Shown piece after piece: positions 13,942 to 31,992 of a stretch of DNA of 54,163 bases. Below the pieces are notes generated by a model. It ran no database searches and was not told the origin of the DNA. It saw only the letters and a list, made by a program, of their open reading frames with translations. Every line of letters starts with the position of its first letter. Within the stretch, counting starts at the first letter, position 1. The position numbers and the translations under genes were made by a program. Origin of the DNA: a virus (Duplodnaviria; Caudoviricetes); the IMG/VR virus record IMGVR_UViG_3300047457_001050, positions 1 to 54,163 of that record. One strand, 5' to 3'.

Positions 13942-15996
13942 CTACTTGCTAGTTGCTCTGAATACGCCGTCCCAATCTGATGGTAATCCTGCACTGGCCA
14001 TTTCATGAATGCGTTCGGTCCATAGTTCATAGTAGTGATCCATTTGTCCATCAAATTTTCCTTTAAGATTTTCTACTGCTTTCAGCGCCTTATTCCATTG
14101 TTGAGCACGATAGTAGGCCAACATTTCATCATGGCGTTCTTTATCTGCTAGCCATTGACTGATCTTACCTTCTTCTGGATTATAGAACACCGTATGAATG
14201 GTTACGCCTTCTTTTTTACCCTTCACTGCTATACAATCTAGTTCTAATGTAAAATATTGATTGTCTAGTCTTTGAGCAGTTTCTGGACCTAGCACAATTA
14301 GCACGCCATAGTTCTTGCTTTGTCCTTCTAAGCGGCTGGCCAAATTAACTGCGTCACCCAAACAAGTATAGTCAAAACGTTGCTCACTGCCCATATTGCC
14401 GACGACAACAACCCCAGTGTTAATACCAATACCCATACCAAAAGCAGGTGTTCCTTCCTTTGCGATTTCATCGTTAAACTCCTTGAGATTGCCTAACATT
14501 TCAAGGGCTGCTTTGACACTTTGACGACAATGCCAATTATCATCAATAGGGCTGTTCCAAAATGCCATTTGAGCATCACCGATATATTTGTCTAGTGTGC
14601 CGTGGTTTTCAAGAATACGCTTGGTCATGGCTGTCATATAACGGTTCATTATCTTAGTTAACCCTTGAACATCTTTGCCATAGTGTTCTGATATTGATGT
14701 AAAGCCACGCACATCTGTAAACATAATTGACAGTTCTTTTTCTTCACCGCCCAGTTTAAGTAGGCTAGGATCTTTGATCAGTTTGGCCACAAGATCCGGT
14801 GATAGGTAACTTTGAAATTGTTTGCGTATCTGTTGTTTCTGGAGGAATTCGCTTATAAATTTAACCGTATAAGCATGTAGTGCTACAAGAAGAATACTAA
14901 GGGTAGGCAAAGTAGCATCAATAAGCCACCTATAATTACTATACCCGTACATACTGCCTGCCACACATGAACCAGCAAGAATAATATAAAATCCGATACC
15001 GACATAGACCCACCTTGATAAAAAGATTAAAACGATGCCAAATACAGCAATGGCGCCTAATTCGGCGGCATCTGCCCAGTCGGGTCTCTGTATGTGACTC
15101 TGTGTAGTTAGTGTTCCTAGCACTGTGCCCTGTAAAAAGTGAGGCCATACCTCTCCTTTAGCAGTTGCCACAGGATTAGACAAGCCTGCTGCTGATAATC
15201 CCACAATAACAATCTCACCATTAAATGAATCCGGTAAAGTCATTAAACTATGTTCCTTAGGCGTTGCTGCCCAATCGATCCATATACGACCTAGAGGATC
15301 AGTAGGAATTTTTCCTATTTTTGGAACTCTTAATGCCTCTACACCTATGTCACCTATCTTTACTTGAACTTTAGGATCTTGTGCGGCTACTCTTAGAGTT
15401 TCTAATGCTAGAGCAGGGTGTAATTTACCTTGGCTGGCAATAACTAGAGGCATACGACGGACCACCCCGTCTATCTCAGGAAAGGTGTTTACAACGCCAT
15501 ATCCTGCGGCCTGTCCTGTTATTATGGCCACTGAACTGATTACGCCTGGATACTCTACAACTTTTCCCTGGGGATCTTGGCCAACGACCTGAGTATTAGG
15601 TGGTTGTGTGGCATTACGTTCTTTTGTATGTCCTAATACTGGAAGAACCACAGGGTGCGTTTTAAGATATTGTGCTAGTTCTTTATCTTCTTTAAACCTA
15701 TCTTGCTCAGGCATTAACACGTTAAAGACTACCAAACCTGCGTTTCTTTTGTAAAGTTCTTCAATTATTTCCTTATAGTCTCCTCTAGGAAAAGGCCATT
15801 GACCCATTTTCTCTAGAGTAGCCTCATCAATGTTTACTGTATGAACAGGAACATCTACTCGAGGTTGACTGGTTATAAGTTGATCAAAATACCGTAGTCT
15901 AACAGATTCTACAAAACTTGGATCAAAGAATCTTAATGCTATAACTGCTATAAGTGTGAGCAAGGCCCACCAAGGGTTAAGTATAATCTTTCTCAT
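13942..15996 (-). CDS. CHASE2-domain membrane adenylate/guanylate cyclase
   Basis: N-terminal TM; CHASE2 motifs IDEATL..GQWPFPR and DGVVRR; three TMs; FTDVRGFT, DKYIGDA, GNMGSEQRFDYTCLGDAVNLASRLE. Confidence 0.93.
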   Translation of the reverse strand: MRKIILNPWWALLTLIAVIALRFFDPSFVESVRLRYFDQLITSQPRVDVPVHTVNIDEATLEKMGQWPFPRGDYKEIIEELYKRNAGLVVFNVLMPEQDRFKEDKELAQYLKTHPVVLPVLGHTKERNATQPPNTQVVGQDPQGKVVEYPGVISSVAIITGQAAGYGVVNTFPEIDGVVRRMPLVIASQGKLHPALALETLRVAAQDPKVQVKIGDIGVEALRVPKIGKIPTDPLGRIWIDWAATPKEHSLMTLPDSFNGEIVIVGLSAAGLSNPVATAKGEVWPHFLQGTVLGTLTTQSHIQRPDWADAAELGAIAVFGIVLIFLSRWVYVGIGFYIILAGSCVAGSMYGYSNYRWLIDATLPTLSILLVALHAYTVKFISEFLQKQQIRKQFQSYLSPDLVAKLIKDPSLLKLGGEEKELSIMFTDVRGFTSISEHYGKDVQGLTKIMNRYMTAMTKRILENHGTLDKYIGDAQMAFWNSPIDDNWHCRQSVKAALEMLGNLKEFNDEIAKEGTPAFGMGIGINTGVVVVGNMGSEQRFDYTCLGDAVNLASRLEGQSKNYGVLIVLGPETAQRLDNQYFTLELDCIAVKGKKEGVTIHTVFYNPEEGKISQWLADKERHDEMLAYYRAQQWNKALKAVENLKGKFDGQMDHYYELWTERIHEMASAGLPSDWDGVFRATSK

Positions 15997-16026
15997 GATA
16001 CTTTATTTATTTGGTAAAAAAAGATC

Positions 16027-16055
16027 TTGACCTTGTATAATCGAGGTGCTATACT
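16027..16055 (+). promoter_or_regulatory. Sigma70-type early promoter
   Basis: TTGACC, 17-nt spacer, TATACT with an extended TG. Confidence 0.8.
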
Positions 16056-16101
16056 TATTCTAACTGCTGAGAAGCAGTGTAAAAATCTAAGAGGAAATAA
16101 A

Positions 16102-16371
16102 ATGTTATATTCTATCAATGAAGGCACCAAAACTCACAAACTTTTCACCGCACTTAAGTCAGGTGAGAAACTAACTCCTGCGCAAGCAGAGAAGCGTTTT
16201 GGTATTAAGAACATTTCAGCAGAAGCAAGCCGCATCCGTCAGGCTGGATATGCTGTATATGCTAACAGCCGTAAAGCAGGCAATGGTGTTCAGGTCACTG
16301 AATATGTAATGAGCCAGCCCAGCCGTCGTTTGATTGCTGCCGGTTATCGTGCTCTACAACTTGGTCTGTAA
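16102..16371 (+). CDS. Small basic winged-HTH-like DNA-binding protein
   Basis: GAGG SD before ATG 16102; LTPAQAEKRFGIKNISAEASRIRQAGY helix-turn-helix pattern; own promoter and terminator. Confidence 0.6.
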   Translation: MLYSINEGTKTHKLFTALKSGEKLTPAQAEKRFGIKNISAEASRIRQAGYAVYANSRKAGNGVQVTEYVMSQPSRRLIAAGYRALQLGL

Positions 16372-16390
16372 TTAGATCCAGTCCAAACTA

Positions 16391-16414
16391 AAAGGCCCTT
16401 AGGGGCCTTTTTTT
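16391..16414 (+). terminator. Intrinsic terminator
   Basis: AAAGGCCC-TTAG-GGGCCTTT followed by a T run. Confidence 0.85.
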
Positions 16415-16446
16415 ATTAAATAAAAAGATTTTGTATAGGACAATTT

Positions 16447-17163
16447 ATGGAAATACTATCATTTGAATTCTTATGGGCTTTACTAGCCATCATCTTAATA
16501 GACGTCGTATTAGGTGGTGAAAATGCCCTAGTCATTGCCATGGCTGCTAATAAGTTACCCGAAAATCTAAGAAAGCGAGCCATGATATGGGGAACATTTG
16601 GTGCTGTGGCAGTGAGGTTCGCCTGTGTGGCAGCACTTACATATTTGTTGATGATTCCCGGTCTTAGGTTTGTAGGTGGTCTTATGCTTATATGGATCGC
16701 ATGGCGTCTTACTACAGGCAATGATGATCACAGCGATGTTAAGGCTAGTGATACATTCTGGGGAGCAATGGCAACTATTGTTCTAGCAGATGCTGTGATG
16801 GGACTAGATAATGCGCTAGCCATTGCTGGTGCTGCTAATGGAAACTGGATCCTGATTATATTTGGACTTCTTGTCAGTGTTCCTATTATCTTGTTTGGTA
16901 GCACAATAGTAGCACGTATTATGGAACGTCATCCTGACACAATCTTTATCGGCGCATTCGTGTTATATGCTGTGGCCTTTAAGATGATCGTAGCAGAACC
17001 CTTTGTTGACCAGTTTATTGATCCATTACATGATTGGTCCGAAATGGGACTCCCTTGGGTTCTAGCAGTTGTTTTAACCTGTAAGCAATATTATAGAACA
17101 CGCATAAGGAAATCGAAAAATGAAACCAGTTCTACTTCAGACACTGATAGCAGCACGGAATAA
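16447..17163 (+). CDS. TerC/YjbE-family integral membrane protein
   Basis: IDVVLGGENALVIAMA and LADAVMGLDNALAIAGAA motifs; multiple TMs. Confidence 0.9.
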   Translation: MEILSFEFLWALLAIILIDVVLGGENALVIAMAANKLPENLRKRAMIWGTFGAVAVRFACVAALTYLLMIPGLRFVGGLMLIWIAWRLTTGNDDHSDVKASDTFWGAMATIVLADAVMGLDNALAIAGAANGNWILIIFGLLVSVPIILFGSTIVARIMERHPDTIFIGAFVLYAVAFKMIVAEPFVDQFIDPLHDWSEMGLPWVLAVVLTCKQYYRTRIRKSKNETSSTSDTDSSTE

Positions 17164-17287
17164 AAATACAACCAAGCCTGACTTTAAAGATATAGATCCT
17201 GTCCATGGTGGTCACAAGGACAGGTCAGGGTTTATTGTATTTTTAATATTGGTTGTTTCTGTTATCTTAGCATTAGGAATGAGTTAG
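17120..17287 (+). CDS. Unannotated 55-aa ORF with C-terminal TM helix
   Basis: AAGGA SD; MKPVLLQ...SGFIVFLILVVSVILALGMS. Confidence 0.4.
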   Translation: MKPVLLQTLIAARNKNTTKPDFKDIDPVHGGHKDRSGFIVFLILVVSVILALGMS

Positions 17288-17385
17288 TCTTTTCGCCTAC
17301 GCCGCCATACAATTATGTTAGGCACTACTATGGCGGCGGTAATGGCAAATACTGCTAAGACAAATAACCATAATTCTGTAGTCAT
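17284..17385 (-). CDS. Unannotated 33-aa single-TM peptide (MTTELWLFVLAVFAITAAIVVPNIIVWRRRRKD)
   Basis: ATGA overlap with the upstream stop, GGAG SD, TM helix with a positively charged tail. Confidence 0.5.
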   Translation of the reverse strand: MTTELWLFVLAVFAITAAIVVPNIIVWRRRRKD

Positions 17386-17597
17386 TCTAACTTCTCCCCA
17401 CAATGCGGACAGCGTTTAGTGTCCTTACGATGTTGATGTAGAACATCTTCCCATTCTTTTATTTCTTTTATAATCTTTTTCAGTGTTCTACGGCAACGGA
17501 TGGGTTTGTCTTTGTCTAATTCATCTTTAAGACGTTTTCTAAGTTGTCCTACTCGTTGTTCAAACACACCTAAAAATCCACCGGTTGATTCACTCAT
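17382..17597 (-). CDS. Small protein with C-terminal CPHC zinc-knuckle motif
   Basis: RCPHCGEKL; translationally coupled to neighbours. Confidence 0.55.
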   Translation of the reverse strand: MSESTGGFLGVFEQRVGQLRKRLKDELDKDKPIRCRRTLKKIIKEIKEWEDVLHQHRKDTKRCPHCGEKLE

Positions 17598-18595
17598 TAT
17601 ATGCCTCTATTAGATTGTCACGAAATATCGTCCAGGCAGCATCCCATGACCACCTTTGACTACCAAGTATAACATCGTTTCTATCTAATATCAAGCATTC
17701 TGTTATAGCCTGTTTGAGATTATCTCTCAAATATCCTGTCCGTCCATGATCAACAACATCTTGCGGTCCCTGGACAGGATATGCTGCCACTGGTGTGCCA
17801 CAGGCCATGGCTTCTATCATGACAATGCCAAATGTTTCCCAGCGTGAGGGAAATACAAATACATCAGCATTGGCATAGTAAGTGGCCAATTCATCACCAC
17901 GCTTAAATCCCACAAACTCTACATTGGGATACTTTTCTTCTAATTCTGCCCTATAAGGACCATCTCCCACCATGATTTTACGAGCACCGAAATAGTCCAA
18001 GGAACAAAAATCATCCAAGTTCTTTTCCTTGCTGACACGACTGACACAGACCAATACAACTTCTCCTGCTCGTTTTGTTCGTAGTTCAGGACGAAACACG
18101 GATCTATCTACACCACGAGTCCATGGTATGATATTACCACGTAGTCCTTTGCTCTCTAATTGACGGACCATTGATTCTGTGGTTGTCAATACTCGACCTG
18201 TATGTTTATGAAACCACTTTATGTAACGCCAAGTTATTGATTCAGGAATGCCAAGAAGGGTATATAGTCCTTCAGGGAACTTAGTGTGATAAGCAGTATT
18301 ATACCTAATATGATGTTTTGTAAGATATTTTCGAGCCCACAGACCCACAGGACCCTCCGTGGCGATATGGTAATAATCCGCACCGATCTCCTCAATCTTC
18401 TCGCCCATCTTCCTCGGAAGGGCAAGTTTGACTTCGTTATAGATAGGGCAATCAACATGGGCTGAAGTCCCCGGGAGTAATATAAACAAACTGATAACTG
18501 TCACGAAGCGCACACGCCTCAATATTCGAATATGTTGTAACGACGCCATTAATTTGATTTGGTAGGTTGTCTGTTATGATCAATATTTTTTTCAC
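17590..18595 (-). pseudogene. GT4 glycosyltransferase (Agt-like glycolipid synthase) interrupted by a 1-nt frameshift near 18459-18461
   Basis: GTG at 18595 gives VKKILIITDNLPNQINGVVTT...ITPGDFS in one frame; HVDCPIYNEVKL..HIATEGPVG..VSRVSKEKN..ETFGIVMIEAMACG continues in another frame. Confidence 0.8.
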
Positions 18596-18755
18596 ATCTG
18601 CCCTCCACTCGAAACCAGGGAAACTTGACCCAGTAGTTCATGTTTTTAAGTGCCTGTTCGCAACTGGCCTGATCACGAAATTCTAATTGTATACGCCCAG
18701 GTATATCTGTAGCGTCATAGATATTAACCACTATGAGGAATAAGATCCACGTCAT
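18549..18755 (-). CDS. Small hypothetical protein with N-terminal hydrophobic segment
   Basis: MTWILFLIVV...F.DQASC..A...C pattern; overlaps both flanking genes. Confidence 0.5.
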   Translation of the reverse strand: MTWILFLIVVNIYDATDIPGRIQLEFRDQASCEQALKNMNYWVKFPWFRVEGRCEKNIDHNRQPTKSN

Positions 18756-19497
18756 CTCGGTCTCGAGTCCAGTAGATGATCTCCCAACGGCCATCTAAAT
18801 GCTCAACTAAGGCGGAACATGATTCCACCCAGTCACCATCATTCATATATACAACACCATTTATTTCTTTGATTTCTGCTTTGTGTATGTGTCCGCAGAT
18901 GACTCCGTCAAAACCACGCTTACGGCAATAGTCACTGAGATTACGCTCAAAATGAAAAACAAAATCCACAGCCCGTTTGACACGTTGTTTAAGATATTGA
19001 CTAAGACTCCAGTAACCGAATCCAAATCTATGCCTCCAGCGATTGAAGGCTGTATTGAATATGAGTAGTAGGTCATAGGCCTTGTCCCCTAAAAAACTGA
19101 TCCAAGGTGTCAGTCTTGCTATACCATCAAAAAGGTCACCATGGACCACTAAGTATTTACGCCCATCTATGCCCATATGATCTGCTTGGTTACAGATATG
19201 GATACGACCAAAGGCAATATTGTAGGGCATCATTGGTCTTAGAAATTCATCATGATTACCTGCCACATAGACCACTTCAGTGCCTCGTTTGGCATGTCCT
19301 AATATTCTACGCACTACATTTGAGTGACTTTGACGCCAGTGCCATTTGTTTTGTTGTATTTTCCATCCATCTATAATGTCACCAACCAGATATAATTTTT
19401 TGGCAGAATTATGCTTGAGAAAATTATTGAGCACATCGGCCTTACAGCCTTTTGACCCAAGGTGTATGTCTGAAATGAATATGGTTTGGTATTCCAT
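18724..19497 (-). CDS. LpxH-like metallophosphoesterase, PlcP-type phospholipase C by context
   Basis: ISDIHLG, LVGDIIDGW, GNHDE, HGDLFD, CGHIH and NDGDWVESCSAL motifs; adjacent to GT4 and pstS. Confidence 0.85.
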   Translation of the reverse strand: MEYQTIFISDIHLGSKGCKADVLNNFLKHNSAKKLYLVGDIIDGWKIQQNKWHWRQSHSNVVRRILGHAKRGTEVVYVAGNHDEFLRPMMPYNIAFGRIHICNQADHMGIDGRKYLVVHGDLFDGIARLTPWISFLGDKAYDLLLIFNTAFNRWRHRFGFGYWSLSQYLKQRVKRAVDFVFHFERNLSDYCRKRGFDGVICGHIHKAEIKEINGVVYMNDGDWVESCSALVEHLDGRWEIIYWTRDRDDVDLIPHSG

Positions 19498-19518
19498 AAT
19501 ATTATTTACGGAATAAAT

Positions 19519-19547
19519 GTTAAAAAATTATTACATTTTAGTTAAAG
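19519..19547 (-). promoter_or_regulatory. Degenerate Pho-box-like repeat upstream of the plcP-like gene
   Basis: CTTTAAC-TAAA-ATGTAAT-AATT-TTTTAAC, heptamers at 11-bp period. Confidence 0.45.
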
Positions 19548-19573
19548 TTTAGTCCAGGACAATATGATAGAAA

Positions 19574-19592
19574 TAGGGCCTCTTGGGCCCTA
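19574..19592 (-). terminator. Hairpin, probable terminator
   Basis: TAGGGCC..GGCCCTA stem followed by TTTC on the minus strand. Confidence 0.55.
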
Positions 19593-19636
19593 CTGCTGGT
19601 TACGAGCATCCAGCACCACTCTATCGTGTGGTCGTT

Positions 19637-19867
19637 TTAGGCTGCGAAACGATAATCTGCTTTTTCTTCTACTGATAATTCTTTATGATCATCGTCACTA
19701 TTATTTTCTTCACTGATTTGTTCAATACGAACATTGACTTTTTCGTAGTTACTTAAAACATCTAATAGGTCCCTTACATGTGTAAGAACCTGTAATTGAT
19801 CTAGGCTATCATCATCTTCTAATTCAATACGGACATCTAGGTCCCAGGCACGCATCTCAAGTTTCAT
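19637..19867 (-). CDS. Small acidic protein ending in DYRFAA
   Basis: AAGGAG SD; 5' hairpin at about 19888-19914. Confidence 0.65.
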   Translation of the reverse strand: MKLEMRAWDLDVRIELEDDDSLDQLQVLTHVRDLLDVLSNYEKVNVRIEQISEENNSDDDHKELSVEEKADYRFAA

Positions 19868-19942
19868 TTTGTGGCTCCTTATGCTATGAGAGGAAGGCTT
19901 ATGACCTTCCTCTCATATTTACAATTATCTGAGTATTTTATT

Positions 19943-19960
19943 TTTACAGATTTATTACAT
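19943..19960 (-). promoter_or_regulatory. Pho-box-like site
   Basis: ATGTAAT-AAAT-CTGTAAA versus consensus CTGTCAT-AWAW-CTGTMAY. Confidence 0.6.
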
Positions 19961-20970
19961 TAATGTTTGATCTGACTCCAAACACGACTGCGGATATCGG
20001 CCTGTAACTTGTCAGGTAAATGAACATAGTCAAGTTCTGCGCTTAACTTAGCACCGTTCTTAAATGCCCAATCAAAGAATTTAATAACTTCTTGGCTGGC
20101 CTTTTTATCAGCAGGTTCTTTATACATTATAATAAAACTTGCTGTGGTAACAGGCCAAGTATCCTTGCCGCCCTGATTTACAATACTCAAGCCCATTCCT
20201 GGAACTGAGAACCAATCTGCTCCCGCTGCGGCTGCTGCGAAAGTTGCGTCATCAGGGGCAACAAAGTTACCAGCCCGGTTTTGTAGCAACATGTAATTCA
20301 TTAAATTCTTCTTAACATAAGCATATTCAACATAACCTATGCTGCCTTTAATCCTATTTACATTGGCAGCAACACCTTCATTGCCTTTGCCGCCAACTGA
20401 ACTAGTAGCAGGCCATTTTACAGCAGCACCACGGCCCACACGCTTTTCCCACTCTGGGCTAACCACAGTCAAGTAGTCTGTCCAGTTGAATGTGGTTCCT
20501 GATCCATCAGCACGATGAACCACGGTGATATTCATGTCTGGTAACTTTTTACCTGGATTTAATGCTTGTAGTTTAGCATCATTCCATTTGGTAATGTTTC
20601 CCATAAACACTTCTGCCATAACAGGTCCTGTTATGCGAAGTTCACCTGGCTTGAACCCTTCAAGATTAACCACAGGCACTGTGCCACCTATGATAGCAGG
20701 GAATTGAACTTGACCCAATTTGTCAAGGTCTTCTCCTTTTACCGGAGCATCACTTGCTCCAAAGGCTACAGTTTTATTGTTGATTTGACGGATACCACCC
20801 GAACTACCAATGCTTTGATAGTTTAAGGTATTGCCTGTGGCTTTGTTATATGCTTCGGCCCATTTGGCATAGATAGGATATGGAAAAGTAGCACCAGCGC
20901 CGGTTATTTCTGCTGCTTGAACAGCCACAGAGAATAAAGCGGCCGCAGCAGCCATTAAAAATCGTTTCAT
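19960..20970 (-). CDS. pstS: Phosphate ABC transporter substrate-binding protein
   Basis: Signal peptide; GAGATFPYP, YQSIGSSGGI, FGASD, HRADGSGTT, GKGNEGV and IGYVE motifs. Confidence 0.97.
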   Translation of the reverse strand: MKRFLMAAAAALFSVAVQAAEITGAGATFPYPIYAKWAEAYNKATGNTLNYQSIGSSGGIRQINNKTVAFGASDAPVKGEDLDKLGQVQFPAIIGGTVPVVNLEGFKPGELRITGPVMAEVFMGNITKWNDAKLQALNPGKKLPDMNITVVHRADGSGTTFNWTDYLTVVSPEWEKRVGRGAAVKWPATSSVGGKGNEGVAANVNRIKGSIGYVEYAYVKKNLMNYMLLQNRAGNFVAPDDATFAAAAAGADWFSVPGMGLSIVNQGGKDTWPVTTASFIIMYKEPADKKASQEVIKFFDWAFKNGAKLSAELDYVHLPDKLQADIRSRVWSQIKH

Positions 20971-21000
20971 TTAAGTTTTCCTTTTTAGTTTAATTAGATT

Positions 21001-21101
21001 GAGATCAACAACGACAAGTAGTTTTACATTCGCAATAACACATACGAAGTTTTTCACATACCCAACACCAACATTGTTTTAGTTTTGTCATTGTTGATCT
21101 C
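21001..21101. repeat. 17-bp inverted repeat bracketing the Cys-rich ORF
   Basis: GAGATCAACAACGACAA (21001-21017) and TTGTCATTGTTGATCTC (21085-21101); the single mismatch is a G-U pair on the minus-strand RNA. Confidence 0.85.
21005..21091 (-). CDS. Unannotated 28-aa Cys-rich peptide MTKLKQCWCWVCEKLRMCYCECKTTCRC
   Basis: Strong AAAGGAG SD 7 nt before ATG; 8 Cys in 28 aa; fills the phoX-pstS gap. Confidence 0.65.
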   Translation of the reverse strand: MTKLKQCWCWVCEKLRMCYCECKTTCRC

Positions 21102-21113
21102 CTTTGCGTTATT

Positions 21114-23398: not shown

Positions 23399-23686
23399 CT
23401 ATTTGTTTAATAAGGAATTTTTAAGATCAAGATACTCAGAAATAAAATTCATCTTGTCTGCTGTAGAAGGCATGTCCTGCCATTCTGCTTCTTTGACATT
23501 CTTAGTAACAAAGATTTCATAGTCGTGTCCGTTGCCCTTGTATAAGTTTACAGTTTGAAAACCTGCGGGGCTGTCTGCTGCTTGAATTAAGGCCTGTGCT
23601 AGTTCTTTTAATGCGGCACGTTCTCCCACTATGTAAGCGGGGTCTTTGACATCCTTACCTGTGTATATTTGTAGTCGTGATCTCAT
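23399..23686 (-). CDS. Hypothetical protein
   Basis: ATGA overlap with the dnaE-like stop. Confidence 0.55.
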   Translation of the reverse strand: MRSRLQIYTGKDVKDPAYIVGERAALKELAQALIQAADSPAGFQTVNLYKGNGHDYEIFVTKNVKEAEWQDMPSTADKMNFISEYLDLKNSLLNK

Positions 23687-25347
23687 ACTAATTCTTGTAG
23701 TTTGATTCTTTTATGTTTGTATACTGTAACATACTCTGTGTTATTTTTATACCCCAATTTGCCCGTTCCCCATATGATAGGATGATCGTGTAGGCTAACG
23801 GCATGAGGTAAGACCACATCTAGATAACGACCATTGCCTGTGCCCAGTGTGACAAATGTTATATACTCTTTGGGCTTTGATTTAAACACACGATAGTTTG
23901 CTACCAGACCACAGAACTCTACCTGCCCTGGCTTGCGAATTTCCTGGCACACAGGTATAAAACTCTTTGAACGCCAACGACCCATTTTCATTAGATCCTC
24001 AATCTCGCCACCTTGACCTATGGAAGGCACAGCACCTGCTAACTTTGCTTCTTGCCAATAGACCCAGCGAGCATATGATCCTTGACAGTGTTTTAGAGCA
24101 GCACGCCAGAACGCTTCTGGATTGTGTGCTTTCTGATAGGCCAGAGCCCAGATCAACCTTCCCAAGTTTATAGCATGAGCACGACACAGGCCAAAATGGC
24201 TAAGTTCTTTCAGTGCCATGAACACATCGTCCTTGCGTGGATGATCTCCTACTAGTTGTAGGAACTCGAACATCTTTTCTTCATTCTTCTTAGCAAAGGC
24301 ACGTCGCCACATGTCTGCGGTATAACTATCACAGCCCAGGATTTCTGATATAAGTTCTATAGCATCATCTTCAAACACTATGGTATCCTGAAAACCATCC
24401 TTTGACCAATCTTGAAAGAAACTAGCCTTACGACGACCTTGTGTGGCCACCGGACGAATTAGAGCAGTGGCCAAGGTGCAGTCACTCTTGCTCTTGGGAC
24501 GAATAGCACGAAACAGACGTTTCATAGCAGGGCTTTCACCCTGTGTTACACCCAGTATATCACCACGACATAGTAGTTCGCTGGTAGCCTCATCATGTTC
24601 GGGATAGTCGGACAATGAACGCTGTTCTATTTCCCATAGTTGACTCAATCCTCTGTTAGCAAGTATATCTATTTTAAAGTGTTCTAGGTCCTCAATTTCA
24701 TATTTGTCCAGTAGAATTTGATTCTCAGCATTGATTAGGCTTTTAGGCACTGAGCGATCGAATATTAAGATACCTCCACAGTGTTTAGAAATACAGCGTT
24801 TCTTACCTAGTAGTTTTTTAACTAACCTTTTAGCATCTTCGGCAAACTCGGGCACGACCTTATCAAGGTCAATATTACGAGGTAGTCTACCCTTAGCACC
24901 ATATCTCTTAGCGGCTTCACGTATGGCAGACTTTTCTTTATAGGTCACATAGTTTGACACACGAGCACTCTGTCCTGGCCATCTTTTGTATATCCTGTTC
25001 ATAACAGTTTCTTGTTGCCAATGAGGAAAGTCAAGATCTATGTCAGGTAAGTCATCACGTTTAGGATTCATAAAACGTGCTAGTGGTATTCGTTCCTTCA
25101 CAGGATCTACATCTGATATAGCCATTAGATAGCAGATCAGGCTTGAGCCTGCTGAACCTCTGGTTATGTGTGGAATGTCACGAGTTAGGTCCAGTATTTC
25201 CCTAACTCTGAGAAAGTGTTTGGCAAAACCTAGTTGTGCTATGAGTTCTAATTCTTCTGCTAGTCTTGTGTTATATTCTTCAGTATCGGGTATTTGCCTA
25301 GTAAATTTGGTGATGAGGTGTTCTAGTTCCCTGTATCTTGATTCCAT
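23683..25347 (-). CDS. Miniature family C DNA polymerase (DnaE-like) without PHP domain
   Basis: RLAEEL.LI..LGF, RGSAGSSL, RFMNPKR..LPDIDLD, HCGG, KIDIL, AHA and a C-terminal OB-fold-like segment. Confidence 0.85.
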   Translation of the reverse strand: MESRYRELEHLITKFTRQIPDTEEYNTRLAEELELIAQLGFAKHFLRVREILDLTRDIPHITRGSAGSSLICYLMAISDVDPVKERIPLARFMNPKRDDLPDIDLDFPHWQQETVMNRIYKRWPGQSARVSNYVTYKEKSAIREAAKRYGAKGRLPRNIDLDKVVPEFAEDAKRLVKKLLGKKRCISKHCGGILIFDRSVPKSLINAENQILLDKYEIEDLEHFKIDILANRGLSQLWEIEQRSLSDYPEHDEATSELLCRGDILGVTQGESPAMKRLFRAIRPKSKSDCTLATALIRPVATQGRRKASFFQDWSKDGFQDTIVFEDDAIELISEILGCDSYTADMWRRAFAKKNEEKMFEFLQLVGDHPRKDDVFMALKELSHFGLCRAHAINLGRLIWALAYQKAHNPEAFWRAALKHCQGSYARWVYWQEAKLAGAVPSIGQGGEIEDLMKMGRWRSKSFIPVCQEIRKPGQVEFCGLVANYRVFKSKPKEYITFVTLGTGNGRYLDVVLPHAVSLHDHPIIWGTGKLGYKNNTEYVTVYKHKRIKLQELV

Positions 25348-25407
25348 GTTGTGCCTTTATAGTTGCCATAATATGGAATATTTAATACCAAGATACAGGG
25401 ATTTGGT

Positions 25408-25782
25408 TTAATTTTGAAAACTTGCTTTCTGTGCGGCCTGTAGTCTCTCTTCATCAGTTAGTTCGTAACACTTGGGCAAGCGGTTAGGATCACGTAGTAG
25501 ATCGTATTCTGATCGTTTAGTATAAGTTTTTCTAAAGTGACGGAATACTAACCAAGTAGCAAATGCCATGCTAACTACTGCCACATGCCCAATTACATTA
25601 TATCCAATGAGATAAAGTTCTCCTGCCCACAAACTAAATGCCACTGCCCAAAAACTGGCCAGTAACACACTGGTGATATATTTGATCTGTGGTGGAGCAT
25701 CTTTTAGAGCATTACGATTGGGATCAAGTAGTGCTACAAAGGCACGATATACAGCGATGAGAAATTTAATAAGTCCAAACAT
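25408..25782 (-). CDS. Hypothetical membrane protein
   Basis: GGAG SD; two TM helices. Confidence 0.6.
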   Translation of the reverse strand: MFGLIKFLIAVYRAFVALLDPNRNALKDAPPQIKYITSVLLASFWAVAFSLWAGELYLIGYNVIGHVAVVSMAFATWLVFRHFRKTYTKRSEYDLLRDPNRLPKCYELTDEERLQAAQKASFQN

Positions 25783-25804
25783 GGTCTGTGTCTCCTGTTA
25801 AAAA

Positions 25805-25993
25805 TTAAGATTCTTTGTCAGTCTTTTTACCGCAGAGATCTGGGTAAAATTGTTCATTACAGACATTGGTTACAGCATAGTGCTGGTCTTTGATAGCATA
25901 TAAACCAACGCCGATTAGAATAGGTAGCCCAAAGGCTACGAATGTAGCAATCACGAATTTCATAGTGTGTCCTTGTGTATTTGTCCTATACAA
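25805..25993 (-). CDS. Small membrane protein
   Basis: One hydrophobic helix; internal start MKFVIA is likely. Confidence 0.45.
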   Translation of the reverse strand: MYRTNTQGHTMKFVIATFVAFGLPILIGVGLYAIKDQHYAVTNVCNEQFYPDLCGKKTDKES

Positions 25994-26039
25994 ACATAAT
26001 ACAATATTTATGAAATGAAATCAATGCTGAATGGAAAAT

Positions 26040-26339
26040 TTAATTATTTTTCCGTAAGAGGTCCTGGCTCAGTTGACTTTCTTCACCAGCGCCCAATATA
26101 CAGGCAGTCTTACCTTTAAATTCAATTATGGTCCAGCCTGTGGTTTCTTTATTATAAAAGATTGAGAATGTGTGATCCTTTTGATCAACGCCCATCCAAA
26201 AAGGTTTTTCCTTATAGTCCTTTCCAGTGAGAGCACCAATAACCTTTTCAGTATCAGCACACATAACTGCTTTATAGGCAGTTTGTTGCGCAAGGGCAGT
26301 GATTGGAAATGACAATAGTAGAAATAAAATTTTTTTCAT
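26040..26339 (-). CDS. Small secreted protein
   Basis: Signal peptide MKKILFLLLSFPITALA; Cys pair. Confidence 0.6.
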   Translation of the reverse strand: MKKILFLLLSFPITALAQQTAYKAVMCADTEKVIGALTGKDYKEKPFWMGVDQKDHTFSIFYNKETTGWTIIEFKGKTACILGAGEESQLSQDLLRKNN

Positions 26340-26352
26340 TTGGAAACTTAGT

Positions 26353-26435
26353 AAACAGGATCCGTTTTGGGAGATCTACACGCTACACGTAGCGATTAAG
26401 AAGGCCAAATAGTTTGCTGTAAGGATCCTATGTTT
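26353..26435 (-). ncRNA. Candidate structured RNA (nested stems)
   Basis: AAACAGGATCC/GGATCCTATGTTT outer stem, TTTGG/CCAAA middle stem and CGCTAC..GTAGCG inner hairpin in a non-coding gap. Confidence 0.35.
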
Positions 26436-26439
26436 GTAT

Positions 26440-26703
26440 TTAATGTTTTGTAGAGAAGTTGGCCAATAAAAGGTCACGGATCATTTCTAGTTCTTCATCC
26501 GAAGATACTATTATTTTTTCATCTAAATCAGTATCACCTTCCCAAATGTGTTTAGGAAGTCTTAGAAACAAGTAGATATCTTTCCAGGTTGTTGTAACAC
26601 CTTGACTATAGCATAATTCTATCACACGAAAGATCTGTAGACAAATTTCTTTGTGTAATTGATTGACGTTCATGGTGACCCCTGTGTTACTGTAACAGAG
26701 CAA
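26440..26703 (-). CDS. Hypothetical protein
   Basis: Probable start MNVNQ coupled to the upstream stop. Confidence 0.5.
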   Translation of the reverse strand: MLCYSNTGVTMNVNQLHKEICLQIFRVIELCYSQGVTTTWKDIYLFLRLPKHIWEGDTDLDEKIIVSSDEELEMIRDLLLANFSTKH

Positions 26704-28517
26704 CCACTTAGGTTAGCGCAGGCCTGTGTTATGTTATATTGTTGATTTATTGATCCTTGCTGTGTAAGATTCAATGTGCTTGCTCCACCAGCATTGGTCA
26801 AACTAATTGTAGCCTTATGACTGCCATTACCTGTCTGTGTAGCAGTAACAGTATGTCCACTACCTGCCAATACTAAATCCATATATTGCCCACCTGCTGC
26901 GGCCTGATTAACATTTACATTATTACTATTGCCTGTGATCGTAGCGTAGAAAGAATGATAGGTATTTTGTCCAAATCCTTGATTTACTGTAATAGTATTT
27001 GTATTACCAGTAACCTCAGTCTTATTATAGTGTCCAGAATTGACGCCACCTGCGTTGGCCTGTTTGAGTGTTATGGTATTTGTATTTCCTGTAACTTTGA
27101 GGTCAATAAAATGCCCGCCGCTTTCAATGCCATCTTTGCTGACTGTGGGCCAAGTTCCATTCCAGCCCTGCTGTAGAGTTATAGTATTGGCAGAACCATT
27201 GACATCAAATTCAATTAGATTCTTTCCACTACCCAGTCCATCACCTTGACGTATTCTAAGAGTATTATAATCGCCTATTAATTGAGCATCACCAATACCA
27301 CCACGACCCTGTATATAATTTGTAGTTCCTTCCTGTATAACGTCAACTTCTGCGTAACTACCACTTTGAGTAATATATAATTTGTTGCCTTGTGCCAATG
27401 CGGCCACACGAGCACGATCGGAATTTTTTTGATTAAGTTGTGAGGCAGTCTCTGTGCTTGAATACCAACTTGACCCACCGCCTGCTTCTTGACCTATGCT
27501 TTCACCGCCCAAGACCTGATAGGTTCCGTCGCCTTGTGGATCCCAGGCTATTTCAAAACTGGTAGGGCCACCTCCACTGTTATCTGTATAAAATTGAACA
27601 TAGAGTATTTCACCAGGTTTGGCTGTATATGAACCATAAGAGTAGGAACAGCAATCACCGTTAGTCACCTGTGTGCCATTGATATATAGCCTGTGTTTAT
27701 CATCCCATCCTGTTCTAAACCATATGGTCTTGCTGACACCATTCATAGCACCAGGCCAACGAATATATCCTGTAACCCAGGCATAAAATCCAGGACCAGT
27801 TCCTCCCTGACTCCAACTAGCATTTGATTGACTCCAACTGCCACTATTACAGCAGTCATACCACTGTATAAACCATCCACGATTTGATGTGCCTCTGGTA
27901 TAGGGATATAGGCTTGAGCCACTGGTCTGTGCTACATTATTAGTGGGCAAGGCTGGTGGTGCCGGACTGGTGACCATGGCCTGTGTGAGTGCTTGATACT
28001 GTGCTGTAGTAGCAGTGCCGCCGTGTGTCCAAGTTGAACTGGTAGTTGAGGTTGATGCCTGTAGATTGATGTAGTATCCATACCACGTGGTGTTATCCAC
28101 AAACATATACTGACGACCTTCGTTAGCACCATTTTCAAAGGCGATAAATCTACCATAAGGTATCATTACAGTATTAAGAGTATTGTTACTATTCCACAGT
28201 TCTAATTGTATAGGATTGCCTGGCATACTGCCGTTATTATAACTAAAACGCACAGTCATACCAGATGTAAAACTAACAAAGCCTGTGCCAGGTTTATACA
28301 ATTGGCTTGAGATTAGACCACTGACGGTGCAGGTTCCGCTTGATTGGGTGCAGGCTCCTACATTCCATTGACTGTCGAATACCTTGCCCACTGGCAGTTG
28401 TAGGTCAGTGACATCAGCACGAGCCGGAGTAGGCGTGAGTGCTACAAAAATTAAACCCAGGCACAATATAAGAACAAATATGCCAAATCCTGTTACCCAT
28501 TTATATCCGTATTTCAT
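26670..28517 (-). CDS. Secreted protein with PA14-like domain and C-terminal curlin-like repeats
   Basis: Signal peptide; TGYIRWP..FRTGWDD..RLYING PA14 pattern; repeated N-x5-Q-x-G units (NKLYITQSG, NTITLQQG, NTITVNQG, HTVTATQTG). Confidence 0.75.
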   Translation of the reverse strand: MKYGYKWVTGFGIFVLILCLGLIFVALTPTPARADVTDLQLPVGKVFDSQWNVGACTQSSGTCTVSGLISSQLYKPGTGFVSFTSGMTVRFSYNNGSMPGNPIQLELWNSNNTLNTVMIPYGRFIAFENGANEGRQYMFVDNTTWYGYYINLQASTSTTSSTWTHGGTATTAQYQALTQAMVTSPAPPALPTNNVAQTSGSSLYPYTRGTSNRGWFIQWYDCCNSGSWSQSNASWSQGGTGPGFYAWVTGYIRWPGAMNGVSKTIWFRTGWDDKHRLYINGTQVTNGDCCSYSYGSYTAKPGEILYVQFYTDNSGGGPTSFEIAWDPQGDGTYQVLGGESIGQEAGGGSSWYSSTETASQLNQKNSDRARVAALAQGNKLYITQSGSYAEVDVIQEGTTNYIQGRGGIGDAQLIGDYNTLRIRQGDGLGSGKNLIEFDVNGSANTITLQQGWNGTWPTVSKDGIESGGHFIDLKVTGNTNTITLKQANAGGVNSGHYNKTEVTGNTNTITVNQGFGQNTYHSFYATITGNSNNVNVNQAAAGGQYMDLVLAGSGHTVTATQTGNGSHKATISLTNAGGASTLNLTQQGSINQQYNITQACANLSGCSVTVTQGSP

Positions 28518-29668
28518 CTGTATGTTTGATTGATAACAATCTGTCCTTGTGCTCGGCCACTGCTAAAGTTGTTGCTAATACTCATCATATCTTGTGTAAC
28601 GCTGACCTGAACCTGAGTATTCATTTGTAGTGAAACTTGTGCTACATTGCGGCCGTTCTGACTAACACTTTCTATGGCCCAACCTACCTGTTTAGTTTCT
28701 GATTTGTCTTTCCATATTTTACGAAGATATTCTGGATCTTCTGATTTTGTTTCTTCCTTGGCAGTTGATGCAGGAATTTCTTCTTTGACTTCAACTTGTG
28801 CTACTGTGGTTTTGGTGTCTGAAGCAGGGGCTTCTTGAGTCTTTTTAGCGTCTGCCGCCTGGTTACTTGCGACTTGTTCTGAGTTATCACCACCATCTTT
28901 GCTCTCTTCTTTGCTCTCTTTCTTTGAGTCATCTTTCTTCACTCCTGGAACACCTGCTTGTGCTGCTGCTGCTCTTGCTGCTGCTACTAGCGGAGCCCCA
29001 CTCATTGTGGGCGGCGGGCTTACTAATAGATTAGTGCCTACTGGCATGGCAAACAAATTCACTGTTAATGGCGGTGTAGGCGGTGCGCCTGCTGTTTCTA
29101 CCATGGTAGCCTGAAAGGGTCTATTCATACTGACCAAATTAGGTCCACTTTCTACATCAATGGCGCCACTGCCGCATATAGCACCTTTTACATTGGGTCC
29201 TGTATTATCCTCACAACTGGGCATTAAGATCACTGTAGATGCGCCAGTTTCATTTACTGCCATGACAAAGTCAGTGCCACGCACAGCGATTGCCGCAGTA
29301 GGTGTATTGATCTTAACAGCATTGGGATTAGCACCGGCTATGGCACCACTGACATAGCGCACAGCACCACTGGTGGCCTTTAGACCAAGTTTTCCTCCCT
29401 GAGCATTTTTAGGATCATAAACAAAATCATCAATAACCAAACTACTGTGTTCCGTGACTGATACTGTAGTATTGTCCTTAAAAGTAATTTTAACCTTGCC
29501 ATTCTTTGTTTCAATCTTATCATTAGTTTGAATCACCGTTCCCTTGGCTATTGTCACAGAATCTTTACCACGTTTTATTGTGCCACTGCCTGTGACCTCT
29601 GTAACTGAACCTATGTCTGCCCAGGCCGTGGTGGCGCAAAATAATAAACTTAAACAGAAATAACGCAC
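28514..29668 (-). CDS. Secreted FecR-domain protein
   Basis: Signal peptide; IGSVTEVTG, D.I.T, ITFKDNT, IDDFVYDP and INTPTAAIAVRGTDF motifs. Confidence 0.88.
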   Translation of the reverse strand: MRYFCLSLLFCATTAWADIGSVTEVTGSGTIKRGKDSVTIAKGTVIQTNDKIETKNGKVKITFKDNTTVSVTEHSSLVIDDFVYDPKNAQGGKLGLKATSGAVRYVSGAIAGANPNAVKINTPTAAIAVRGTDFVMAVNETGASTVILMPSCEDNTGPNVKGAICGSGAIDVESGPNLVSMNRPFQATMVETAGAPPTPPLTVNLFAMPVGTNLLVSPPPTMSGAPLVAAARAAAAQAGVPGVKKDDSKKESKEESKDGGDNSEQVASNQAADAKKTQEAPASDTKTTVAQVEVKEEIPASTAKEETKSEDPEYLRKIWKDKSETKQVGWAIESVSQNGRNVAQVSLQMNTQVQVSVTQDMMSISNNFSSGRAQGQIVINQTYR

Positions 29669-29677
29669 GGCAACTCC

Positions 29678-30544
29678 TTATGGTGTTGTTCGTTGAATTA
29701 TATTCCAAACTCCACTGCTGCCCACTGTAGTGACCTTGACCACATTATCCTGTGTGCCTGATTGAGCAATATAGAATCTGTTGCTGGCTCCATTTACATC
29801 CAACCATATGCTGCTACCATAAGCACTGTTGCCTGTCTGGCTCAGGTTGAACACGTTGAAGTTACCTGCCACTGTGATAGTTTGGTTATGATTGTTGCCC
29901 ACTGCGTCAATATTGAACTCATTGCTATTACCACTGGTCACAGTGATTTGACTGTTTAGGTCATCACCTGTGCCACGAAACTGTATGGCATTGCTGTTAC
30001 CTGTAAATTTCCAATTTAGAACAGCATCCTTACAGCCTGTTAGAGCAGCACCTGCTGAACTTGATCCACTACCGCATAACACATCAGCAAAGTTACTGTT
30101 GCCCAACTGCTGAATAGTAACATCTACTCCCTGTGCTGCCACATCTGGGCTTATTGCCTTCATAGCAATAGTATTGTTATTGCCTACCTGATTTAATATA
30201 ATGTTATGATCGTCACCACGCAGATAGATAGCACTGTTTACTGTATATTGACGAACACCACCTGGGTTCAAACGATCTACAATACCTGTTATAATTTTGC
30301 TATAGGTAGAATCACTGCCAGCAGTGTTACCACTGCCTGTTTGTGTGATGCTGACGTTTGGACGTTCACCATCTTGGTCAATGAACACACGATTGGTAGC
30401 ACTCTGTGTCAGTGCTGTGGCAGTGCCTGCCATTACTCCAACTGTGGGATCAACGGGAGTTGTTGGGCTTGGTGCTGTTACTGTAGTCTGTGCTAGCACC
30501 GGAAATGCTGAGATCATCAACAGTGTTATTAGTGTTTTTTTCAT
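29678..30544 (-). CDS. Curlin-repeat secreted protein (CsgA/CsgB-like)
   Basis: Signal peptide MKKTLITLL..VLA; repeats NVSITQTGSGN, NIILNQVGNNN, VTIQQLGNSN, NLSQTG. Confidence 0.75.
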   Translation of the reverse strand: MKKTLITLLMISAFPVLAQTTVTAPSPTTPVDPTVGVMAGTATALTQSATNRVFIDQDGERPNVSITQTGSGNTAGSDSTYSKIITGIVDRLNPGGVRQYTVNSAIYLRGDDHNIILNQVGNNNTIAMKAISPDVAAQGVDVTIQQLGNSNFADVLCGSGSSSAGAALTGCKDAVLNWKFTGNSNAIQFRGTGDDLNSQITVTSGNSNEFNIDAVGNNHNQTITVAGNFNVFNLSQTGNSAYGSSIWLDVNGASNRFYIAQSGTQDNVVKVTTVGSSGVWNIIQRTTP

Positions 30545-30561
30545 GTTCGCTCCGTCCTTCA

Positions 30562-31473
30562 TTAGTTTGTTTTAACTGGTTGTCCACTGGAGTCGACCAG
30601 TCCTTGATTGGGGGCTGATTCAGTAGACTGGGGGGTAGTTTTGGGCTTCGGTGTCTGAACCACGTCATGTTTGGCTTGCTCCTTGTATTTCCACAGTCCT
30701 TGGCGCTCACCTTGATTTATCAGTTCTATGACACCTGCTTCAATTGCTGAACGCATGGCATAATTGCCTGGCTCATTGAATGTTTGCCCTGTATCCAGTT
30801 CAAACGCACGAGTAGCGGTATTAAAGAATTTCAGTGCTGTGAGGCCTTCTGATGTGCTTAATAGGTTCTTTTCTATGGTCACACTGGTTAAGACTTCGCC
30901 AGTTTGAACACTGACTAATCTTAGACTGATAACCACTAGGTCTTGTGTGTATTGAGTATATGGTCCTATGCCCAACCAACGAGCACCTGTGCCCCCTGTT
31001 AGAGTATTTGAATTATAATCAATAATACCACCTTCTATGATCACACCTGCTAGAGTTAATGGTGGCAGCATTTTGGCCTTTTCACCATCGTAGATTTCTC
31101 TAGTCTGTTTGATCATTTGTCTTTCTTTAAGTAAGTTATCTAGGCCCACACGCTCGACCACTGTGAACCATTGACGATTGCCAACTTCACTTAGAGTTTT
31201 AATTAGATAATTTTCAGCGCCTTGAGTAACTGCTGATGAAAATAAACTCAATGTGTTACTGGGCTTACGTTGGCCTGTTAGATCTCTAAAGTTGTATACA
31301 GCCACAGTGATTGGAGGACCTGCTGGGGCTGGCACTTGATTTAACTCTTTCAGTATGTTTTGACTTACTTTGGGTTCGCTCGCTGCCTGCGCATCAACGA
31401 TTGGTCGTATAGCATTACAACCTCCTAATGCTATACTTGCTGCGATTATGCTTAATTTCAGTATGTTCTTCAT
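30562..31473 (-). CDS. csgG: Curli secretion channel lipoprotein
   Basis: LGGC lipobox; VAVYNFRDLTGQRKP, FSSAVTQGA, WFTVVER.GL.NLLKERQ, IEGGIIDY and TGGTGARWLGIG motifs. Confidence 0.93.
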   Translation of the reverse strand: MKNILKLSIIAASIALGGCNAIRPIVDAQAASEPKVSQNILKELNQVPAPAGPPITVAVYNFRDLTGQRKPSNTLSLFSSAVTQGAENYLIKTLSEVGNRQWFTVVERVGLDNLLKERQMIKQTREIYDGEKAKMLPPLTLAGVIIEGGIIDYNSNTLTGGTGARWLGIGPYTQYTQDLVVISLRLVSVQTGEVLTSVTIEKNLLSTSEGLTALKFFNTATRAFELDTGQTFNEPGNYAMRSAIEAGVIELINQGERQGLWKYKEQAKHDVVQTPKPKTTPQSTESAPNQGLVDSSGQPVKTN

Positions 31474-31474
31474 A

Positions 31475-31948
31475 TTAGAATCCAAAACTTGCTATTGGCA
31501 CACGCACAGTGGTCACGGTTCCTGCTTTATCTACCACTGTCAATGTTACATCTTTGTCTGTTTTTACCCAGGTAATGGTATTGCCATCTAATGAAAATAC
31601 ACCTGAGGTAGGATTGATACATCCTGCTATAGGCAAGCCGTCTGCACCATTACATTTATTTTGGAATAGATTGGTGCTGAGTTGACTGGCTAATTGAGCA
31701 TATACTTGACTGGTAAACAGGCTCATAAAGCGAGCCAATGGTGTATTCTGCGATTCTGCCAGCAATCTGGCCTCTTCAGATTTTTTCTGACTTTCTATGT
31801 TATCTTTACGTGCTTTCTCTATACTGTCAATAGTAAGAACATGGCTGCTCCAGTTTTGTCCGTTAAAACTAGGACTCTTAAACTGTTGGACTAGTTCAGC
31901 ATGAACGAGTGTTGGAATGAGAAGCAATACCAACGCAATTTTCTTCAT
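31475..31948 (-). CDS. csgF: Curli assembly component
   Basis: Signal peptide followed by ELVQQFKSPSFNG; directly upstream of csgG. Confidence 0.85.
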   Translation of the reverse strand: MKKIALVLLLIPTLVHAELVQQFKSPSFNGQNWSSHVLTIDSIEKARKDNIESQKKSEEARLLAESQNTPLARFMSLFTSQVYAQLASQLSTNLFQNKCNGADGLPIAGCINPTSGVFSLDGNTITWVKTDKDVTLTVVDKAGTVTTVRVPIASFGF

Positions 31949-31951
31949 AGT

Positions 31952-31983
31952 CGCTCCTTAGTTATATATTATTTATCGGAGCG
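31952..31983 (-). promoter_or_regulatory. Late-type TAAATA promoter inside an SD-masking stem
   Basis: Minus strand CGCTCC-GATAAATA...TAA-GGAGCG. Confidence 0.55.
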
Positions 31984-31992
31984 TTTAAGAAT

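Follow-up and report, generated by a model that had tools for sequence, protein, structure and literature searches.

In a complete IMG/VR virus record of 54,163 bases (IMGVR_UViG_3300047457_001050; the whole of this stretch is called the window below, and positions refer to it), a curli-like csg operon that includes a gene for a FecR-fold protein shares its strand with a gene for a CHASE2 receptor adenylate cyclase, and comparative analysis strongly supports the view that the two belong together, because hundreds of viral contigs and two cultured phages keep the same gene order. The six-gene cassette that they form is already known, and what the window holds is, judging by its gene content, the viral type VIII secretion system (T8SS; curli)-FecR-adenylate cyclase module, split into two parts. 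Its source is by genomic indications a very large freshwater phage of ~350 kb, since records related to it by the same cassette measure 343-372 kb (completeness 98-100%, with terminal repeats in one) and its piece of a DNA polymerase III alpha subunit (PolIII-alpha) finds its best phage match, at 38% identity, in a 484-kb uncultured phage; the window would make up ~16% of the genome by estimate. Near-identical DNA turns up in metagenomes of freshwater, rivers and lakes from many studies. What is new is the split of the cassette, its occurrence in a phage of ~350 kb and the fold of its FecR protein, in which a disordered linker joins a periplasmic plug-like domain to a small C-terminal beta domain.

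The cassette and its split form

A search for viral CsgG yielded 78 loci, 68 of which carry FecR and 51 the cyclase; where at least 8 kb follows downstream, FecR is present throughout (40/40) and the cyclase in 37 of 40. One of the three loci without it is L017, and the other two, L002 and L003, are closest kin of the window whose cyclase lies 15-18 kb off on the same contigs. The reverse search, made with the cyclase, gave at least 598 viral stretches, and the cassette is one of the commonest multi-gene accessory modules in aquatic phages; in the best 80 that were analysed, CsgG and FecR accompany the cyclase in 62, and in 52 of the 55 loci with at least 6 kb upstream (the exceptions being L080, L081 and L158). 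When 22 loci were read gene by gene, the order was invariably csgF-csgG-curlin-FecR, followed by no or one more curlin-like gene and then by the cyclase, sometimes with one small open reading frame (ORF) in addition, and in eight of these loci the FecR gene runs directly up to that of the cyclase (with a 4-nt overlap in seven and no gap in one). The same six genes, in unchanged order, are found in two phages in culture, Melnitz (genes 99-104) and HTVC008M (gp014-019), with all six of them annotated in the GenBank records. An earlier note on this DNA, made from the letters alone, had proposed that operon and cyclase are linked and had named co-occurrence and synteny as one way to check it; the counts for CsgG loci with a cyclase and for cyclase loci with CsgG and FecR bear this out.

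The operon comprises five minus-strand genes (26670-31948) in the order csgF, csgG, curlin-repeat, FecR-fold and a gene for a 615-aa protein (p615). Successive genes overlap by 11 nt and by 1 nt, then stand 9 nt apart, and finally overlap by 4 nt, and the operon is therefore tightly packed; together with the Pfam matches, these junctions confirm the tightly coupled arrangement described in the earlier note. The first gene, csgF (31475-31948, minus strand), encodes a secreted protein with a signal peptide (Pfam CsgF, E 3.1e-9; phrog_35372, E 2.4e-32) that has nothing beyond a chance match among PDB sequences at E<=1. The second, csgG (30562-31485, minus strand), encodes the outer-membrane lipoprotein pore (Pfam CsgG, E 1.2e-48; E 6e-48 to 1e-45 against the CsgG entries 6lqh, 4uv3 and 6l7a of the PDB), with an LGGC lipobox whose Cys23 is invariant in an alignment of 22 viral homologues. 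The curlin-repeat protein of the CsgA/B-like type that follows (29678-30562, minus strand; 294 aa, signal peptide) matches Pfam Curlin_rpt at E 4.8e-5, with three such stretches at E<=10, and has weak matches to the NCBIfam models for CsgB (3.7e-7) and CsgA (1.3e-5), both under cut-off. Upstream of csgF stand a 125-aa membrane protein (31993-32370, minus strand; phrog_2470, E 4.9e-17) and a gene of phrog_13937; a homologue of the former is a conserved upstream neighbour of csgF, lying directly upstream of it in most of the nearer relatives (L002-L021).

The gene for the FecR-fold exported protein (28514-29668, minus strand; 384 aa, signal peptide; Pfam FecR, E 1.1e-10; phrog_37870) starts 9 nt after the curlin gene. 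An alignment of 23 viral homologues and an AlphaFold2 (AF2) model, with an overall per-residue confidence (pLDDT) of 72.9, agree on three conserved parts: a folded N-domain (residues ~20-240, pLDDT ~90), a disordered linker of variable composition (243-310, pLDDT <50) and a C-terminal beta domain of six strands (311-384, pLDDT 76-88) that ends in an invariant Gln. Within the N-domain, residues 47-212 superpose on the cell-surface signalling domain of PupR (6ovk_R; VIA Z 15.0), and residues 16-111 on the RIN domain of the adhesin MpIBP (5ix9; VIA Z 10.8, root-mean-square deviation 2.1, 73/76 residues, 25% identity). The signal peptide passes directly into the FecR-fold domain and the protein has no cytoplasmic anti-sigma domain, so that its likeness to FecR/PupR-type anti-sigma factors is confined to their periplasmic domain, their cytoplasmic anti-sigma domain and transmembrane helix both being absent from the phage protein. 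At its C-terminal end, it shares with the curlin-repeat protein and with p615 a motif of a beta-strand followed by Gln.

The last gene of the operon encodes p615 (26670-28517, minus strand), which consists of an N-terminal signal or transmembrane segment, a variable N-half and a C-terminal beta-helix (~352-615), the C-half alone being conserved among relatives. Database searches with it gave no Pfam family at E<=0.01 (Curlin_rpt at E 2.5 at best) and nothing among PDB sequences under E 0.34. In its AF2 model (pLDDT 55.2 overall, 70-93 in the C-half), the C-half forms a confidently predicted beta-helix of curlin-like repeats, of which residues 352-590 resemble the SufD-type beta-helix 5awg_B (VIA Z 18.1). 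The stretch 216-350 (pLDDT 53-74) possibly forms a lectin- or PA14-like beta-sandwich in this low-confidence part of the model, with Z 8.6 to 6qe7_C over residues 216-346 and further matches to 6qdi and to sugar-binding sandwiches at Z ~7; 6qe7_C and 6qdi we take to be PA14 domains. The earlier description of p615 as a PA14-curlin protein thus holds for its curlin-like C-half, while the PA14 label has no Pfam match even at E<=10 and, as a possible counterpart, the low-confidence sandwich.

The sixth gene encodes the CHASE2 receptor adenylate cyclase (13942-15996, minus strand; 684 aa), which matches Pfam CHASE2 at E 1e-37, Guanylate_cyc at E 1.4e-21, phrog_35576 over its full length at E 1.2e-232, and PDB adenylate cyclases such as Pseudomonas aeruginosa CyaB (3r5g) at E 5e-27. 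Its layout, with transmembrane helices taken as hydrophobic stretches read off the sequence, is a first such helix, a periplasmic CHASE2 domain (~25-325; Pfam match 14-322), three further transmembrane helices and a class III catalytic domain (420-598). None of the 23 homologues aligned deviates at D428, K470 or D474, and the Thr of the DYT motif and the Asn and Arg of VNLASR align with those of CyaB 3r5g; these residues we take to be the two metal-binding Asp, the substrate-specifying Lys and Thr of class IIIb, and the transition-state Asn and Arg. The cyclase lies on the same strand as the operon, 10,673 nt downstream of its end, and Pfam, the alignment with the PDB enzyme and this distance uphold the earlier reading of a CHASE2 cyclase with intact catalytic motifs some 11 kb from the operon. 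It is an orthologue of the cassette cyclases in related phages, at 66-70% identity to those of L005-L008 and 39% to that of Melnitz. In five of the other loci (L010, L022, L026, L046 and L078), Ser replaces the transition-state Asn and there are other changes near the Lys-x-x-Gly-Asp motif; these cyclases may be altered or inactive enzymes.

Directly downstream of the cyclase gene lies one for a second, soluble protein with a cyclase domain (12582-13814, minus strand; 410 aa; Pfam Guanylate_cyc, E 1.9e-7, residues 7-162), copies of which, 90-91% identical, occur only in the closest kin (L080/L081). On a reading of its sequence, it has Asn at both substrate-specifying positions, and its C-terminal half is helical and of no known family.

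Short Logan contigs from metatranscriptomes, in four runs, match csgF, csgG, the curlin gene, the FecR gene, the p615 gene and the cyclase gene with 0-3 differences; such contigs give neither strand nor level and may stem from DNA carry-over, and the stretches that they leave uncovered carry no meaning.

Operon and cyclase are separated by a block of 10.7 kb (15997-26669), which by Pfam holds small ORFs, the PolIII-alpha piece, PhoX, PstS, a metallophosphoesterase and a GT4 glycosyltransferase as well as, on the plus strand, TerC and a winged-helix gene. Between the p615-like gene and the cyclase gene, this block is present in L002-L004 and L080-L081 and absent from L005, L006, L008, L010 and L020. 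By this distribution the split arrangement is derived, because the nearest relatives outside the clade of the window (L005-L009 and L021, CsgG 69-77% identical) have a contiguous cassette and the block is found in the window and in L002-L004. All six genes are intact, and between the window and its L002/L080 relative, ratios of nonsynonymous to synonymous substitution (dN/dS) are 0.05-0.13 in each of them (0.097 in the cyclase), which indicates that they have been kept under purifying selection within the split clade. The module thus stays under selection even though it is physically split. What sets the window apart, besides the split and the very large phage, is the presence of a second cyclase, a soluble one, and of phosphate genes in the inserted block.

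What of the transcription of the two halves? The word ATAAATA stands upstream of both starts, 28 nt from that of csgF (31970-31976, minus strand) and 14 nt from that of the cyclase (16004-16010, minus strand); the window has 11 copies of it, all on the minus strand and none on the plus strand, and it precedes 7 of 55 genes within 60 nt. For the canonical T4-type late promoter TATAAATA, 6.25 sites would be expected in the window; two are present, both away from csgF and the cyclase. From the TAAATA late-type promoters named in the earlier note, what remains is therefore the ATAAATA words upstream of both genes, and the canonical promoter at these sites does not. Upstream of the cyclase unit lies a strong two-way hairpin terminator (16390-16411; 9-bp stem, five of its pairs GC, flanked on either side by T/A runs), so that no read-through into the cyclase from the genes above is predicted. 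The winged-helix (HTH_39) gene (16027-16371, plus strand) diverges from the cyclase with ~30-100 nt between the two starts, and 50 nt within it (16192-16241) also occur in contigs from RNA libraries that belong to other organisms.

Such a layout brings up the idea that the split cyclase acts alone, as a host-takeover enzyme that raises cyclic AMP (cAMP), for instance in starvation or phosphate responses, while the csg-FecR operon merely builds a surface structure. The separation of 10.7 kb, the terminator and the cyclase's own ATAAATA word all fit this idea, as do the second soluble cyclase gene that has been added downstream in this lineage only and the phosphate-acquisition genes (PstS, PhoX) of the inserted block. 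It is nevertheless unlikely, given that the CHASE2 domain has been retained and is constrained (dN/dS 0.097), that the full set still lies on one strand within 20 kb, and that the linkage outlasts many rearrangements in other lineages.

Cellular loci and published systems

Are the FecR and cyclase genes a viral addition to a cellular csg locus? The cellular set consisted of the best 80 CsgG loci, one genome per prokaryote species. FecR occurs in six of these and the cyclase in four, all of them contigs of metagenome-assembled genomes (MAGs) of 8.9-46.6 kb assigned to unrelated phyla, and at least two of the six contigs with FecR or cyclase are flanked by phage genes. L206 has a T4-type sliding clamp, a clamp loader and RegA in its flanks, where 9/10 ORFs match PHROGs; the corresponding figure is 10/13 ORFs for L165, and those for L166 (5/11) and L229 (1/7) are ambiguous. 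A seventh MAG contig, L162, ends ahead of the position where FecR would stand, and in the remaining 73 of the 80 loci, among them every isolate genome, csgF, csgG and curlin genes stand without FecR or cyclase. Those cellular CsgG proteins that come closest to the phage one (40-50% identity) are mostly alphaproteobacterial and adjoin CsgF and curlin genes.

In comparison with bacterial curli systems (csgBAC/csgDEFG of Escherichia coli and the alphaproteobacterial csg loci), the module therefore shares the CsgG lipoprotein pore, CsgF and curlin-repeat substrates, whereas CsgE, CsgC and CsgD are not found in the phage window and FecR and the CHASE2 cyclase are added. The earlier note had seen no csgE, csgC or csgD, and this was confirmed within the window, about a sixth of the genome, by six-frame searches with zero matches to CsgE and CsgC at E<=0.1 and by general Pfam scans of 61 window ORFs with no LuxR/CsgD-type protein among them.

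The combination of csg genes, FecR and cyclase is not new to the literature. Wittmers et al. (2022; PMC9599517) describe in pelagiphage podoviruses and myoviruses a region of CsgF, CsgG, CsgA/B, FecR, often a second CsgA/B, and adenylate cyclase, to which the podoviruses add a histidine kinase; they state that the FecR and cyclase additions do not occur in bacterial operons, and they report the genes at all 65 ocean stations, together with transcripts. In the excerpts from PMC7029224 and PMC9004378, only csgFG is discussed, with no mention of FecR or a cyclase. A search of the accessible literature on CHASE2, phage and adenylate cyclase did not find the CHASE2 identity of the phage cyclase in print, and one on CHASE2 and FecR did not find, among the papers listed, the parallel between the phage cassette and bacterial FecR-CHASE2 pairs.

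With the published module (HTVC008M, Melnitz), the window shares the six families, their order and the lack of CsgE, at 44% identity to Melnitz in CsgG and at the identity already given for the cyclase. It differs in that its cyclase stands 10.7 kb away behind the inserted block, that its phage is a freshwater one of ~350 kb and not a T4-like or podovirus pelagiphage, that its second curlin-like protein runs to 615 aa and varies in its N-half, and that a second soluble cyclase gene follows downstream. No kinase domain was found among the ORFs scanned; the window thus lacks the upstream histidine kinase of the podovirus form, as do the myovirus examples Melnitz and HTVC008M.

Since no CsgE gate was found in the window, might CsgG and CsgF form a pore in their own right, a pinholin or secretin that times lysis or an uptake channel, with neighbours that are accessory or unrelated? 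A role in lysis has been proposed for Melnitz (PMC9004378), and uptake in PMC7029224 and PMC9599517. This is nonetheless very unlikely, as it does not account for the presence, beside the pore in nearly every locus, of curlin-type substrates, FecR and the cyclase.

The other half of the module has counterparts in bacteria, where FecR-domain proteins are tied to CHASE2 receptors, as the earlier note had said and as published work bears out. Burkholderia has a LysM-FecR protein with a CHASE2 histidine kinase (PMC5192318); a cluster in Campylobacterota comprises a CHASE2 cyclase, a cAMP phosphodiesterase, a FecR outer-membrane protein and a tetratricopeptide repeat protein (PMC9239204); and in Sinorhizobium meliloti, an external protein signal is sensed by the CHASE2 cyclases CyaK and CyaD1/D2 only with the help of the outer-membrane protein NsrA (PMC7529298, PMC13001267), whose beta-barrel comprises residues 600-1200 (PMC7529298). 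As in the phage set, the gene for an exported FecR-domain protein stands next to that for a CHASE2 sensor. Unlike NsrA and the LysM-FecR protein, the phage FecR protein has neither a beta-barrel nor LysM, and instead carries a C-terminal beta domain of 70 residues after a disordered linker; the outer-membrane element of the phage module would be a separate one, the CsgG/CsgF pore. A different parallel is offered by the retention module of RTX adhesins (MpIBP RIN, LapA type). The RIN domain of MpIBP is a periplasmic plug, too large for the outer-membrane channel that the rest of the protein threads, which keeps the pore-threaded adhesin on the cell (PMC5550230). In those adhesins, the channel is a TolC-type type I secretion system, whereas here it would be CsgG, with threading through it being conjectural, and beyond the RIN-like stretch the phage N-domain resembles FecR/PupR.

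A possible relay and its rivals

How might these parts work together? It is conceivable, on analogy with the bacterial pairs and with a chance that we put at about even, that they form an outside-in relay, in which the state of a pore or fibre would be passed to the FecR protein, from there to the CHASE2 cyclase and so to cAMP. In a Gram-negative infected cell, CsgG and CsgF would form an outer-membrane channel that exports the two curlin-type proteins, which would assemble into beta-solenoid fibres or a surface cap. The FecR protein would have a PupR-like periplasmic domain, of the kind that docks on outer-membrane signalling partners, with a first half that resembles the plug of an RTX adhesin; by means of its disordered linker of ~70 residues and of the small beta domain at its C-terminus, which has a curlin-like end, it could reach into or through the pore. 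It would probably also pair with the cyclase at the periplasmic CHASE2 domain, and how much cAMP is made in the cytoplasm would then depend on what state the pore or fibre is in or on a ligand that binds there. The cAMP would then act on host receptors, because no protein with a domain that binds cyclic nucleotides was found in any of five long related phage records (0/5), three of them at least 98% complete.

The earlier note had set such a relay against fibre formation, holding that the parts serve it rather than making biofilm amyloid. That opposition finds no support: two curlin-type beta-solenoid proteins are encoded, and fibre export therefore remains the simplest predicted job of the pore.

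Several considerations speak against the relay. First, FecR keeps to the csg genes and not to the cyclase, both in the window and in 11 loci with operon and cyclase in opposite orientation, L108 being the only locus that keeps FecR with the cyclase; and according to PMC9599517, FecR is always present, while the cyclase is merely frequent and is rarer in podoviruses. As FecR stays with the csg genes and published podovirus forms often come without a cyclase, FecR should have a role that is independent of the phage cyclase. Second, the cyclase of the window is, as the predicted terminator indicates, a separate transcription unit. Third, the likeness of the FecR C-terminus to curlin is weak and only a hint: its C-domain aligns with the curlin family profile at an hhalign E of 0.0017 and a probability of 15%, i.e. 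weakly positive. Finally, the cassette literature examined contains no experiment on any member of the cassette. A prediction of the complex between the FecR N-domain (18-228) and CHASE2 (24-326), made with 23-row alignments for each, scored 0.00, which gives no answer either way.

The opposite direction of signalling has its own attractions. The FecR protein and the cyclase might regulate curli from the inside out, with cAMP tuning fibre export through a host CRP-type factor, and the fibres might serve aggregation ('sibling capture') or the exclusion of other phages. FecR and adenylate cyclase have been put forward as putative regulators of the viral T8SS, alongside curli-driven aggregation or defence against superinfection (PMC9599517), and sibling capture has been proposed elsewhere (PMC7029224); the two curlin-type substrates encoded in the operon fit this. 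We nevertheless regard it as doubtful. CHASE2 is an extracytoplasmic sensor domain, so that the input of the cyclase should be periplasmic, and the FecR-fold protein is exported with a signal peptide and has no cytoplasmic anti-sigma domain. Moreover, cells infected with Melnitz showed no clumping (PMC9004378), and a cAMP-responsive regulator of phage origin was not found in the five long related records.

Within the outside-in relay, the architecture of FecR suggests a concrete topology. FecR might be a tether, with its plug below the CsgG/CsgF channel, its linker inside the channel and its curlin-like C-domain locked in the fibre, such that force or a ligand would act on the CHASE2 cyclase; this specific version is quite improbable. 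Were it true, an infected cell could feel contact, the products of neighbouring lysis or superinfecting phages, and could adjust the infection programme through host cAMP. The phage would then have built an analogue of the NsrA-CyaK pathway, which senses the free ribosomal protein uL2.

Other genes of the window

The PolIII-alpha homologue of the inserted block (23399-25782; 554 aa, with NTPase and finger domains) is adjoined by family-less ORFs of 95 and 124 aa and may be a split or truncated replicative polymerase. The GT4 glycosyltransferase and the calcineurin-type phosphoesterase (17590-19497) are a pair that recurs next to the cassette cyclase in other loci (L093, L099, L100, L106, L139 and others). 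This phosphoesterase (the metallophosphoesterase at 18724-19497), which has weak LpxH-like and generic phosphoesterase matches far under cut-offs, could by analogy with the Campylobacterota cluster be a cAMP phosphodiesterase.

Against the phage collection, a megablast search with 26000-34200 and a tblastn search with a 479-aa structural protein each returned zero matches. Apart from the cassette, the window holds genes typical of the accessory kind: sugar-nucleotide and glycosyltransferase genes, PhoX, PstS, TerC, heme oxygenase, bilin reductase, ClpS, Hsp20, DnaK and ribonucleotide reductase. The bilin reductase and heme oxygenase genes (33461-34658) adjoin those for ClpS, Hsp20 and DnaK, in a window that bears no sign of a cyanobacterial host. 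At the left end, a plus-strand block of sugar-modifying genes (1-9463) encodes a DegT aminotransferase, an FkbM methyltransferase, a thiamine pyrophosphate (TPP) enzyme, an HpcH aldolase, two epimerases/dehydratases, and GT34-like and GT17-like transferases, a content that suggests the synthesis of an unusual sugar.

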